Positions 895 through 5,893 of a DNA stretch of 5,893 nucleotides are shown here, piece by piece. The position numbers were made by a program, and so were the translations under genes. How positions within the stretch are numbered: the stretch's first letter is position 1; each line of letters begins with the position of its first letter. The notes beneath the pieces are model-generated. The model was not told where the DNA came from and did not search any database. It was given only the letters and a program-made list of their open reading frames with translations. This DNA is from a virus (Duplodnaviria > Heunggongvirae > Uroviricota > Caudoviricetes), in the IMG/VR virus record IMGVR_UViG_2698536372_000022, one strand, 5' to 3'.

Positions 895-1153
895 ATTGAT
901 AACAGAGGGCGTTGCAGCGGGGTTGTCACTTAAGCGTATGGTCAACCTGACAACCCGGTGTCCTCAACGGGGAAGGAATAACCCCGCCATACTTACCGCC
1001 GCGCCATTTTGCGGGTTGCCACAACCGGAAGCGCACGGTCGAATTAAATTTAACGACACCGTACAGTGAGACGAACTTCGCCGTGCGCTTTCGTGTTGTG
1101 TGCCTGCTTTTAACCACGTCAGGCGAGGTGGTATCCTTAAAATCACCACAGTT

Positions 1154-1729
1154 TTAAGGATTCATTAAGCAATGTCGCAACCACCAATAAATCCGCTTAA
1201 GAACATGAAAATTGATTACTGGTATAAAGCGCTTACAGTTGTTGGCGCTGCGTTGTTTGTCTTTAATGGAACGTCTTTTTTTGACAGATATCCCGTTGTT
1301 CCATTGGGTTTTTTGTCCTCCGGCATCTTTTTTATTGGTTTGGGGGAGTGGATTAATCACCCTCTCATAGTGAGATTTATTGGTCCTGGAGTTTGGACTC
1401 GTGGATATAATCGTTCTTCGTGCGCACTCGGTATCATCTTCGACATACTTGGTTGTTTCCTGATTGTTACAGGAGTCGTCAAGTTCTTCTGATGTAAAAC
1501 CGCAAATGGGGCACGTAACGGGAATTTTGAAAAGCGTTTCTCCGGGTTCCAGAACAAAATTTTCTGCGGTCTGATTTTGCTTCTCATATTTGTGCTCCGC
1601 GTCATTGTGAGAGCACATTCTTATTCTGAGTGCCTGTTTAAACTCACTGAAGCTGAGAGCTTCTTCGCCTTCGGCAAGGCCTTCGAAGTATTCTTCGTAA
1701 GCCTTTTCCATGATTGTGTTGAAATCCAT
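1154..1729 (-). CDS. YdfB-like prophage protein; open reading frame continues for 191 codons, C-terminal extent uncertain
   Basis: ATG at 1727-1729 on the minus strand lies 1 nt after the ydfA stop, with GGTGAG upstream. The N-terminus MDFNTIMEKAYEEYFEGLAEGEEALSFSEFKQAL is acidic and protein-like and includes a CPICG motif. The frame stays open to 1154, but the last ~100 residues are K/R/N/T-rich low complexity, which is what the antisense of a hydrophobic ORF looks like. The K-12 counterpart is much shorter as I recall. Confidence 0.45.
   Translation of the reverse strand: MDFNTIMEKAYEEYFEGLAEGEEALSFSEFKQALRIRMCSHNDAEHKYEKQNQTAENFVLEPGETLFKIPVTCPICGFTSEELDDSCNNQETTKYVEDDTECARRTIISTSPNSRTNKSHYERVINPLPQTNKKDAGGQKTQWNNGISVKKRRSIKDKQRSANNCKRFIPVINFHVLKRIYWWLRHCLMNP
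1172..1492 (+). CDS. Candidate small membrane protein (106 aa, about 3 hydrophobic segments), convergent with and antisense to the ydfB-like ORF
   Basis: ATG at 1172 with AAGGA 12 nt upstream. Product MSQPPINPLKNMKIDYWYKALTVVGAALFVFNG...GFLSSGIFFIGLGEW...ALGIIFDILGCFLIVTGVVKFF has three hydrophobic stretches of transmembrane length. The ORF contains no TTA, CTA or TCA codons. It is mutually exclusive with the minus-strand ORF over the same bases, so only one can be the selected frame. Confidence 0.3.
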   Translation: MSQPPINPLKNMKIDYWYKALTVVGAALFVFNGTSFFDRYPVVPLGFLSSGIFFIGLGEWINHPLIVRFIGPGVWTRGYNRSSCALGIIFDILGCFLIVTGVVKFF

Positions 1730-4282: not shown

Positions 4283-4702
4283 GTGGCAAAAGTTTTTACA
4301 CAAGAAGAGCGGGAAAAAATTAAAGGGCAGGTGGTGGAACTCGTACGCCAGAGTGGGCGCGAGACGTTACGACAACTGGAAGCTAAAACTGGGGCAACAA
4401 GATATCTGATGAGCGTTCTGGCCAGAGAGCTGGTTGCCAGTGGCGATGTATACAGCTCTGGTTACGGGTTATTCCCGTCTGAACAGGCGCGTAAGGACTG
4501 GCAAAACGCCCGCAAAAAACTCTCGAGGGCAAAGGTGAAGAAACCTGCTGTGGTTGATCCGGACCTTATCTGGTCATTACCTGACGGAGAAATACGTCGC
4601 TACGACAGTCGTCTAAACATAATCTGTCGCGAGTGCCGGAAGGCAAGGAGAAGCAGGCTATTGTTAACACCAAGCTGTAATGTCCCCTTTGAACCATTCT
4701 AA
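4283..4702 (+). CDS. Hypothetical basic protein (139 aa), function unknown; possibly a remnant of a replication/helicase-loader module gene
   Basis: GTG start at 4283 with AGGAGG 5 nt upstream. Product MAKVFTQEEREKIKGQVVELVRQSGRETLRQLEAKTGATRYLMSVLARELVASGDV... is lysine/arginine-rich with a possible HTH-like segment and a CRECR motif. A GC hairpin plus T-tract follows the stop. I recognise no family for it. Confidence 0.6.
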   Translation: MAKVFTQEEREKIKGQVVELVRQSGRETLRQLEAKTGATRYLMSVLARELVASGDVYSSGYGLFPSEQARKDWQNARKKLSRAKVKKPAVVDPDLIWSLPDGEIRRYDSRLNIICRECRKARRSRLLLTPSCNVPFEPF

Positions 4703-4735: not shown

Positions 4736-5830
4736 ATGATCAAAGAGACTGTTACGATGAGTCATAAGGAACTCCACCGACTTCAGATTATTCAGGAGTC
4801 AATTAATCGACATATTACTCAGGAACAAGCTGCGGCACGCATTGGCATTTCTATTCGGCAGGTTAAACGTCTGGTGCAACGGTATAGAAATGAAGGGCCT
4901 TCTGGTCTGGTTTCCCACCGACGTGGAAAGCGTCCTAATAATTCCTTTTCTACTGAATTCAGAGCAACAGTAATTTCACTCCTCAAAGGCCGTTACGCTG
5001 ATTTTGGACCTACGTTTGCGTGCGAAAAATTGCGCGAGATACACGGTTTATCTTTATCCGTTGAAACTCTCAGAAAGTGGATGATAGAAGAGGGGTTATG
5101 GCGTGAACGCCGTCGTAAAATTGCCCGTATATATCAACGCCGCATGCGACGACCATCTTACGGTGAACTGATCCAGATTGATGGCTCACCTCATGACTGG
5201 TTTGAAAATCGAGGCCCCAGATGTACACTGATCGTTTTCATTGATGATGCCACCAGTGCGTTGATGGCGTTGCGTTTTGTGCCTGCTGAAACAACCCGGG
5301 CTTACATGGAAACCCTCCGGGGTTACCTTAATGATCATGGCGTACCGCTCGCTCTCTACTCTGATAGACACAGTATATTCAGGGTAAATAACCCAGAGCG
5401 GGAAGGTGAGCTGACCCAGTTCACTCGTGCGATAAAGACACTGGGCATCGAGCCAATCCATGCCAACAGCCCGCAGGCAAAAGGGCGGGTAGAGCGCGCC
5501 AATCAGACACTACAGGACAGGCTGGTCAAAGAAATGCGGCTTCAGAATATCAGTGATATTGAAACAGCAAATGCATGGTTGCCGACCTTTATTGAAGCCT
5601 ATAACAACCGGTTCGCTACGTCGCCTCGTACTACTGATAATGCTCATCTTGATGTGCACCATTCTGAAGAGGAACTGGGTTATATCTTCAGCCTACAGGC
5701 GAAGCGCGTTCTGTCTAAAAATCTCACTTTCCAGTACAAAAGCAGTGCGTTTCAGGTACGCAGTGAGGGCCGGGGATATCGACTTAGGCATTCGGTTGTT
5801 ACTGTATGTGAGAACTTTGAGGTAGCCTGA
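4736..5830 (+). CDS. DDE transposase of the rve (retroviral-integrase-like) superfamily with N-terminal HTH; IS481/ISNCY/IS21-IstA-like
   Basis: The N-terminal HTH region reads AARIGISIRQVKRLVQRY. The catalytic core has the DDE arrangement: D in QIDGSPHDW, D in LYSDRHSIF, and E in the KGRVERANQ signature typical of rve transposases. Alternative start at ATG 4757 (MSHKEL...). The exact IS family is not resolved from memory. Confidence 0.85.
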   Translation: MIKETVTMSHKELHRLQIIQESINRHITQEQAAARIGISIRQVKRLVQRYRNEGPSGLVSHRRGKRPNNSFSTEFRATVISLLKGRYADFGPTFACEKLREIHGLSLSVETLRKWMIEEGLWRERRRKIARIYQRRMRRPSYGELIQIDGSPHDWFENRGPRCTLIVFIDDATSALMALRFVPAETTRAYMETLRGYLNDHGVPLALYSDRHSIFRVNNPEREGELTQFTRAIKTLGIEPIHANSPQAKGRVERANQTLQDRLVKEMRLQNISDIETANAWLPTFIEAYNNRFATSPRTTDNAHLDVHHSEEELGYIFSLQAKRVLSKNLTFQYKSSAFQVRSEGRGYRLRHSVVTVCENFEVA

Positions 5831-5881
5831 GTTTAACGGACACTCCTTCCTGAAATAGAATGGCATCAGAAGGAGCTAATA

Positions 5882-5893
5882 ATGAGCAGAAAA
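5882..5893 (+). CDS. Start of a downstream gene (first 4 codons, MSRK); possibly a second IS gene or passenger
   Basis: ATG at 5882 is preceded by AGGAG (5871-5875) at 6-nt spacing, 51 nt after the transposase stop. Only 12 nt are in the window. Confidence 0.3.

Follow-up and report, generated by a model that had tools for sequence, protein, structure and literature searches.

The closest described counterpart of the locus analysed here is the sieB-esc-sas module of phages P22 and lambda, in which a membrane-protein gene of the lysogen side lies against the PL operon. Esc neutralises SieB, and the sas RNA of P22 derives from the early-left transcript. In P22, sas has been documented as a 105-nt cis-antisense RNA of sieB (PMC12197685, PMC7067206). 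The convergent early gene of these phages (24 or N) stops before sieB. A related arrangement, in which the early frame instead crosses the whole cargo gene, is found in IMG/VR virus record IMGVR_UViG_2698536372_000022, a stretch of 5,893 nt (henceforth the window) that represents the immunity and early region of a lambdoid Escherichia coli prophage of the dicB/Qin type. Its plus strand carries a gene for a 106-aa membrane protein, here termed X (1172-1492), and its minus strand a frame of 191 codons, here termed Y (1154-1729). The comparative evidence makes it probable that X and Y form a conserved sense/antisense overlapping pair, with X on the lysogen side and Y in the early operon.

The X/Y module resembles sieB/esc/sas in its placement, X lying in the same position and orientation against the PL operon behind the same element and hairpin, and by analogy it probably resembles it in antisense control as well. 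SieB and X are nevertheless different proteins: a single BLASTP comparison returned E = 0.1 and no meaningful alignment, X has 106 aa as against 192, and no Esc-type internal start is evident in it. What is new here, as far as sequence comparison goes, is a lysogen-side cargo gene of the sieB slot with a conserved, fully overlapping early-operon frame, and with it a small membrane-protein family is recognised as cargo of this classical slot. A first-pass annotation, made from the letters of the window without database searches, had described X as type I toxin-like or superinfection-exclusion-like. The latter is a reasonable analogy in view of the sieB slot, whereas the former does not fit by size or architecture. 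Like hok/sok-type toxin-antitoxin systems, the locus combines a small hydrophobic protein with a predicted complementary opposite transcript and a hairpin that includes the Shine-Dalgarno sequence. Yet type I toxins usually have fewer than 60 aa and a single helix, whereas X is about twice the typical size, has three helices and a beta-hairpin, and belongs to a broad family that also occurs outside phages; moreover, its antisense partner would be a protein-coding mRNA.

A second group of relatives is formed by long open reading frames (ORFs) lying antisense within another gene, such as nog1, asa and ano of enterohaemorrhagic E. coli (EHEC) or olg1 and olg2 of Pseudomonas aeruginosa. Long antisense overlapping genes are rare and contested in bacteria and phages, and most candidates come from expression data of one strain; the EHEC and P. 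aeruginosa genes are known mainly from single-strain Ribo-seq and are evolutionarily young. In contrast, the case for X/Y is evolutionary, drawn from sequence comparison of about 14-20 diverged phage lineages of Gamma- and Betaproteobacteria, with a 107-codon frame that is open in more than 12 phage lineages whose synonymous sites are saturated. A further difference from those overlaps is that the longer ORF is here the one without constraint in the overlap.

Both the plus-strand ORF and the 191-codon minus-strand ORF are present as the first-pass annotation had them. X runs from ATG 1172 to TGA 1490-1492. A search of 5.8 billion proteins returned 60 homologues with 34% to 99% identity, nearly all of 100-111 aa, from genera that include Escherichia, Yersinia, Herminiimonas and Reinekea. 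A profile search against 1.84 billion cluster representatives gave 488 matches at E<=1e-3, of which 220 also passed E<=1e-10; their length is 100-115 aa with few exceptions. The alignment contains two blocks of invariant residues (W17 Y18 K19 A20 and G56 G58 E59 W60 N62 H63 P64), and X shows the features by which the family can be recognised, namely a length of about 100-115 aa, an N-terminal NPL...DYWYK(A), a central GLGEWINHP and three hydrophobic helices. The three transmembrane-length stretches noticed earlier are borne out by Kyte-Doolittle maxima at residues 20-34, 42-56 and 85-99 and by the AlphaFold model (pLDDT 88.9), which has helices at 17-32, 42-62 and 85-105 and a beta-hairpin at 65-79. 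Arginine and lysine residues are placed in the N-terminus and in loop 2; the predicted topology would be N-in and C-out, with both conserved motifs on the cytoplasmic face.

Between the window and an 84%-identical copy from Escherichia sp. (locus L120), the X frame differs at 11, 7 and 35 sites in codon positions 1, 2 and 3, respectively (dN 0.087, dS 0.67, dN/dS 0.13). The dN/dS of the Y frame across the overlap is 1.7, so that the third-position check proposed with the first-pass annotation favours the plus frame. On this comparative evidence, X is a genuine small inner-membrane protein gene under strong purifying selection. It matches no Pfam, PHROG, NCBIfam, PADLOC or PDB entry (for PADLOC, neither X nor Y at E<=1), and no description of the X family or of the X/Y pair was found in the searched literature. 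Judged solely by its position, X probably has a lysogen-side membrane function, for example in exclusion or abortive infection.

The idea of a membrane-protein gene antisense within the dicB operon has thus held up, while the accompanying word 'undescribed' was too strong: X is uncharacterised though widespread, and it already holds RefSeq 'hypothetical protein' accessions. The exact X and the exact Y protein are both in NCBI as 'hypothetical protein' with WP accessions. RefSeq annotates the stretch in two forms, as a ydfB pseudogene fragment or as a 191-aa minus-strand hypothetical protein, and the record of phage HannyBb carries a 205-aa version of Y; X is unannotated in the RefSeq and phage records examined, HannyBb included. 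In phages, X has been missed by gene callers, Pfam and PHROGs because the longer antisense ORF was kept. In Yersinia and in P0013-type prophages, X is the sole gene called at the locus. Outside phages, homologues of X stand in arrays of small orphan ORFs or near a ParD-like gene or DUF5677. In Reinekea (L129, L130) and in L131, these arrays are on the same strand, one of them has the ParD-like gene, and in layout they resemble cassette arrays.

A striking property of X is its codon choice. As first noticed in the initial reading, X avoids TTA, CTA and TCA, the codons that would close the antisense frame: its 10 leucine codons are CTT (three), TTG (four), CTC (two) and CTG (one), and its six serine codons are TCG, TCT and TCC, two each. 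General codon optimisation was rejected as the cause of this avoidance, as X uses the rare codons ATA, AGA and GGA, and 27% of its four-fold degenerate codons end in A. The antisense frame is free of stops over 107 codons in the window, in the 84%-identical copy, in the 58%-identical P0013 copy and in the 51%-identical Yersinia copy, all at a GC content of 40-44%. With the codon usage of neighbouring phage genes (TTA 18-26%, CTA 4-15%, TCA 18-29%), the chance of such a frame is 0.002-0.02 per enteric lineage; X's own third-position usage puts it at 0.0005-0.013. At a dS of 1.7-2.6 between lineages, synonymous sites vary all but independently, and the lineages come close to independent trials. 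Non-phage homologues of X at similar GC content have 5-17 antisense stops.

The same comparison was extended to metagenome and viral contigs, which were ranked by their resemblance to a distant copy of X and yielded 63 different X proteins (38 clusters at 80% identity). A null based on the A content of the gene's own third positions proved too strict at higher GC and was replaced by local codon usage and by pooled, GC-binned codon usage, the latter of which gives the expected stop counts. Lineages were classified by the presence of the N-terminal domain of Y described below, a classification that is independent of the stop test because only sequence outside X was used for it. The 14 lineages with the domain have three antisense stops in total where 39.9 would be expected, and 13 of these lineages are fully open, the expected number being 0.76. 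In the 24 lineages that lack it, 124 stops compare with 102.7 expected, meaning that the null is not too strict, and seven of them are fully open against about 0.9 expected. Even phage-type X genes that lack the Y domain have stops, three in L264 and seven in L277. As these counts show, lineages with a Y N-domain keep the Y frame open across X almost without exception, and the frame is not accidental. The first-pass view of the minus tail as an accidental antisense read of a membrane protein is not supported in the light of these counts and of the conserved N-domain, start codons and Shine-Dalgarno sequences of Y.

Y runs from ATG 1729 to TAA 1156-1154 on the minus strand and matches phrog_35040 (function unknown); an alternative start, ATG 1771, would give 205 codons. 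X and Y are codon-aligned, position 1 of X lying opposite position 3 of Y. In the window, Y is an in-frame fusion of the N-terminus of YdfB and a Y core. The YdfB-homologous part comprises 34 codons (1628-1729, minus; phrog_2061, E = 1.2e-20, residues 1-34) and begins, like the translation of K-12 YdfB, with MDF(D/N)TIMEKAYEEYFEGLAEGEEALSFSEFKQAL. The 42-aa YdfB itself ends in ...SSSAKSNG and is followed by ydfC; here, homology is lost at 1629-1632 and the ORF runs on for 191 codons, and PGAP flags ydfB of the window as incomplete. The Y core has its own internal ATG at 1618, from which the N-domain extends up to the overlap (1493-1618, minus), with the motif CPICGF at 1496-1513. The remaining tail (1157-1492, minus) is the codon-aligned antisense of the entire X gene plus five codons. 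The contrast between an acidic start and a basic tail seen in the initial reading is confirmed by pI values of 4.6 and 9.7.

In the window, L120, P0013 and Yersinia, the open Y frame begins 35-45 codons past the stop of X with a plausible start codon, and all four encode ...IPxxCP(I/V)CGF, with DNA differences in the motif that are synonymous in the minus frame. The distance from the X stop to the CPxCG motif is exactly 21 nt in five lineages, namely E. coli, Escherichia sp., Yersinia, P0013 and the betaproteobacterium Roseateles aquae. Two classes of N-domain can be told apart: class A has the knuckle (I/T)P..CPxCG(F/C/H), class B the pattern ..FFERL..PGSVxIDxxxxxVxLxGW. In both, differences are enriched at third positions, with dN/dS values of 0.29 and 0.30, respectively, which on these alignments shows the N-domain of Y to be under purifying selection. 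Start codons and Shine-Dalgarno sequences belonging to Y are present as well, and across about 20 lineages the Y proteins are uniformly 150-165 aa long and end 4-12 codons beyond the start of X. The Y profile search turned up no standalone relatives of the N-domain; in it, Y was found only together with X. Searches of Pfam, NCBIfam, PHROGs and PADLOC with Y returned PHROG 35040 and the ydfB head only. An assignment of class A to zinc ribbons (Com-like, Nudix N-terminal) was rejected, the matches being weak (E = 0.06-0.24). Given its conserved N-domain, Y would also be a protein with a function of its own.

Two side observations concern Y in other genomes. In another type of E. coli prophage (L295 and P0067-P0070), Y starts at the position of ydfA with MGI(Q/R)..., has no stop in the hairpin and continues through the invariant element into an in-frame YdfC-like C-terminus, giving proteins of 245-272 aa. 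In Yersinia enterocolitica (L117-L119), about 90 nt past the X stop, a T6/T7 length difference shifts the Y frame ahead of its presumed start in one of three assemblies; it is either a real variant or an assembly error.

Within the overlap, the two frames behave very differently. Identity of the Y tail between saturated lineages is 0.30-0.41, as compared to 0.30-0.35 under a null that combines the constraint on X with random stop-free synonymous codons (p = 0.05-0.5), and its pI ranges from 5.7 to 10.5. These comparisons show an amino-acid sequence without detectable constraint: it is the frame that is selected, not the sequence. The open frame expected of an antisense overlapping gene pair is seen, and purifying selection on both amino-acid sequences within the overlap is not.

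Upstream of X lies an element that is nearly invariant over 31 nt even where the X proteins are only 51% identical (TGCCTGCTTTTAACCACGTCAGGCGAGGTGG, 1101-1131; interleaved GCCTG/CAGGC and CCAC/GTGG). Its consensus over the window, loci L133-L251 and the P22 locus (L252, 702-733) is TGCCTG(C/TC)TTTTA(A/G/T)CCAC(N)TCAGGC(GAG/TCG)GTGG. It occurs in at least 120 viral contigs and stands ahead of at least 33-45 kinds of plus-strand cargo gene, among them sieB of P22, lambda and VT1-Sakai, so that a very widely shared, unannotated regulatory element upstream of the sieB slot comes to light. The interleaved pairs permit a possible pseudoknot topology, and the element may be a scaffold or the 3′ part of sas-like antisense RNAs. 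In the Rfam scan, neither the element nor the hairpin belonged to a family, DicF being the only model to reach threshold; an assignment to the P1 c4 / P4 CI type was dropped, there being no match to the C4 or c4-a1b1 models.

The element is always followed by the hairpin. In the window, the 8-bp inverted repeat of the first-pass annotation is exact (CCTTAAAA / TTTTAAGG, 1135-1142 / 1152-1159) and extends to 10 Watson-Crick pairs around a 9-nt loop (ATCCTTAAAA / TTTTAAGGAT, 1133-1142 / 1152-1161). A 53-nt fold has -12.5 kcal/mol (z = -3.4, matched by 0 of 200 shuffles). The right arm contains the stop codon of Y and, as had been claimed, the Shine-Dalgarno sequence AAGGA of X (1156-1160), with a spacing to the ATG of 11 nt rather than 12. 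The arms covary across lineages and cargo types (AAAA/TTTT, CTT/AAG, AAAGG/CCTTT, TGCTGG/CCAGCA, TTCTCG/CGAGAA). Over 33 types, the minus-strand fold is the more stable one (mean -10.05 versus -8.45 kcal/mol; 22 versus 11 types; Wilcoxon p = 0.018), several cargo-type hairpins pair well on the minus strand only, and the minus-strand stem holds an anti-Shine-Dalgarno sequence. Because of this stability and the documented sas of P22, hairpin and element are suggested to be part of a sas-like antisense RNA on the strand of the early operon. For the hairpin of the window itself, the assignment to the minus strand would follow from the family as a whole.

A putative promoter of X lies at 1110-1137 on the plus strand, with a -35 TTAACC (1110-1115), a 16-nt spacer and an extended -10 TGgTATCCT (1129-1137). 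In all cargo types with a short leader, the window included, TAT(A/G/C)CT directly follows GGTGG, which it does in no long-leader type, and the extended -10 (TGgTATNCT) sits 31-36 nt before the ATG. From this -10, transcription of X would start near 1144, in the hairpin loop, and the left arm would be absent from its mRNA. Together with the greater stability of the minus-strand fold across cargo types, this candidate start makes the hairpin probably not the cis-acting trap of the X ribosome-binding site that had been proposed. In long-leader types, a -10-like box comes after the hairpin, and the loop sequence is found a second time at the start of the 5′ UTR. The P22 reference record likewise places the sieB promoter and RNA start downstream of element and hairpin, meaning that the element is not in the P22 cargo mRNA. 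The loop sequence of long-leader types (e.g. ACCCCTACAG, TTCCACAGTCAA or TCCCCAACAAC) is repeated in the same orientation directly behind the cargo start, whether annotated or predicted (L229, L226, L236, L237 and others; P22 L252, 740-785), and these specificity sequences differ from type to type. The repetition looks like the loop-target (kissing) design of an antisense RNA.

How could such an arrangement work? In the lysogen, the repressor would shut the early operon and X would be made from the extended -10 promoter on the invariant element. Upon induction or infection, early transcription would converge on X and produce an RNA fully complementary to the X mRNA. X and Y would thus be expressed alternately, X in the lysogen and Y upon induction or infection, and convergent transcription together with complementary mRNAs could let the two silence each other. 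Y would be translated through all of the X antisense, ending in the hairpin just past the X ribosome-binding site, and the transit of ribosomes could prevent Rho-dependent polarity or RNase III-sensitive duplexes with the X mRNA; alternatively, the tail of Y may simply be tolerant of sequence. As the frame is open without constraint on its sequence, ribosome transit would be the simplest explanation.

Several observations weigh against this scenario or parts of it. The Y stop and dicB are separated by some 490 nt of RNA that is not translated (the element, DicF and flanks), and avoidance of polarity alone therefore fits the arrangement poorly. All three stops of the Y-bearing group fall in L289 (X codons 4, 5 and 16), so that full coverage of X is not obligatory. 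Conversely, the seven stop-free lineages without a Y domain (L013, L273, L293, L323, L023, L004 and L296) are more than chance predicts; with a GC content of 0.47-0.63, they may hold further classes of Y, or the null may be imperfect at GC >=0.47. AlphaFold modelled Y with very low confidence (pLDDT 41.8 from an alignment of six sequences, at which depth disorder and lack of data look the same), and no second Cys or His pair that would complete a zinc site is conserved in Y. The perfectly paired hairpin of the window is slightly more stable on the plus strand (-11.5 versus -9.4). The X promoter scores 8 of 12, below the threshold of the scanner; the consensus promoter scan upstream of X reported no site, and the proposal follows from the comparative patterns described above. 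Finally, the non-phage contexts of X gave no functional clue.

With these points in mind, other readings of the locus have to be considered. If Y were the only gene, a 191-aa early protein with X as its chance shadow, it would be understandable that gene callers usually choose the longer minus ORF, that it is so annotated in some genomes and in HannyBb, and that Y forms PHROG 35040 while X is absent from PHROGs and Pfam. This reading is hardly credible and is effectively refuted by the comparative data: the X family is hundreds strong and at many loci has 5-17 stops on its antisense strand, substitutions concentrate at the third positions of X (dN/dS 0.13 versus 1.7 in the Y frame), and X has a confident model and is the sole gene called in Yersinia and P0013-type prophages. 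The converse reading, that X alone is a gene, tightly controlled and possibly toxic, with an accidental minus tail and a hairpin that hides the ribosome-binding site of X in cis, is improbable too, if far less so. It draws on the clear selection on X, on a Y tail that has neither amino-acid constraint nor a confident fold, on the automatic hydrophilicity of the antisense of a membrane protein, on a significantly stable hairpin that includes the Shine-Dalgarno sequence and on PGAP, in some of whose annotations the minus ORF is a fragment of a ydfB pseudogene. It leaves unexplained why 13 of 14 Y-bearing lineages are stop-free where 0.76 would be expected, while those without Y carry 124 stops, why the N-domains immediately upstream of the overlap are under purifying selection and why Y always ends shortly beyond the start of X; the likely start of X transcription within the hairpin loop also speaks against it.

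A stronger competitor, though still an unlikely one, is true dual coding, in which X and the entire Y are functional and Y is an early antidote or regulator of X with a sequence-tolerant, for example disordered, tail. The Y frame is maintained, its N-domain is always attached to the tail without standalone homologues having been found, the slot is analogous to sieB/esc/sas, and tail identity is slightly above the null in most pairs (p = 0.05-0.19 in four of five saturated pairs). Yet no significant constraint on the tail is detectable, its pI varies from 5.7 to 10.5, L289 cuts it early and no fold is predicted for Y. In its broadest form, a dual-coding pair across temperate phages of Gamma- and Betaproteobacteria, the whole of Y would be an early-lytic, functional protein, for example an antidote to X as Esc is to SieB; we hold this to be a tentative and rather unlikely idea. 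If it were true, one strand of the DNA would code for an exclusion-type effector and the opposite strand for the protein that neutralises it. Compared with all of these, a sense/antisense pair whose antisense frame is kept open without a conserved tail sequence remains the reading we prefer. The X/Y pair is thereby well suited to studying what preserves an open frame in the absence of a conserved sequence, be it anti-polarity, duplex avoidance or a tolerant protein, and direct tests are within reach, since a single nucleotide change can be silent on one strand and introduce a stop on the other.

The position of the pair is as constant as its structure. X is in every case a neighbour of the immunity region and runs antisense to an early lytic operon. 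On the repressor-proximal (PL) side, Y is one of the first genes in the window, in L120 and L113 and in the types from Yersinia and Pantoea. In phage mEp390 (NC_019721; L413, 2462-2917), the annotated gp39 is a class B Y and stands between the cro-like gp38 and the cII-like gp40; X is unannotated on the opposite strand and points towards the repressor gene, in a PRE-like direction. The orientations of flanking ORFs fit the same pattern in most other lineages. The mEp390-type cassette thus recalls PRE and OOP of lambda in lying between cro and cII, with X directed as an establishment transcript antisense to cro; the antisense RNA of lambda is, however, non-coding over cro and cII, whereas its counterpart in the cassette would code for a membrane protein. 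Burkholderia phage Bcep176 has an X-type protein annotated as gp33, and there the antisense frame contains stops. In BL21-type prophages (L122, 1571-1771, plus; also mEp460), the slot holds an unrelated soluble cargo of 66 aa, the Shine-Dalgarno sequence of which likewise pairs with a conserved TCCTT. The convergent early gene there (121 aa, 1740-2105, minus) overlaps the cargo by 32 nt only, making full overlap specific to the X cargo.

In the window, the pair is embedded in a gene order that can be read from annotated relatives. The minus strand carries ydfA (1731-1886), followed downstream of Y by the DicF sRNA (842-893; Rfam RF00039, 76.7 bits, E = 3e-16) on the same early-left transcript, dicB (479-667) and ydfD (291-482). 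A DicA-like repressor gene (2079-2537, minus) and a DicC/Cro-like gene (2564-2791, plus) make up the immunity region, and further genes are ydaT-like, O-like and an IS transposase. A PL-like promoter candidate upstream of ydfA (TTGACG-17-TAAATT, 1963-1991, minus), found by consensus scan only, would drive ydfA, Y, DicF and dicB, which would make the minus strand here the repressor-controlled early-left operon. K-12 Qin has ydfB and ydfC in the same operon place, after ydfA and before DicF, and the first 34 codons of Y match ydfB; the ydfB tail and ydfC are replaced by the X/Y cassette at about 1139-1629.

The boundaries of this replacement are visible across E. coli. The whole segment 1100-1800 is present in 793 of 5,426 complete genomes; most other matching genomes have only 1629/1632-1800, that is, ydfA and the first 34 codons of ydfB, and some match 1100-1138 only. 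Because the partial matches end there, the stretch from 1139 to about 1629 appears as an exchangeable module that is swapped for the K-12 ydfB tail and ydfC, with a left mosaic junction at 1138/1139 and a right one at about 1629-1632, where homology to K-12-type prophages stops. We lean towards regarding 1139-1629 as a mobile two-gene cassette, 107 codons of which are read on both strands. A further minus-strand ORF within it had been put forward as the counterpart of ydfC, with about 76 aa at 1357..1587. It exists, though its full extent is 1357-1605 (82 aa) and 1587 is an internal start, and its proposed identity did not survive comparison: BLASTP with K-12 YdfC gave no alignment at E<=100, Pfam, PHROG and NCBIfam searches gave no family hit, and the frame is interrupted by stops in related lineages. 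We therefore consider it spurious.

Three further features of the window lie outside the cassette. A sub-threshold match to the sRNA family STnc100 (635-844, minus; 34.6 bits against a gathering score of 47, E = 7e-5) covers the DicF-dicB spacer and the 5′ end of dicB. A DUF977-like gene (4283-4702) has an apparently altered 3′ end beside an inserted IS, the transposase of which (4736-5830) has 364 aa with, as judged by eye, a helix-turn-helix domain and an integrase core. Another ORF begins at 5881, after an apparent second element boundary (~5830-5893).

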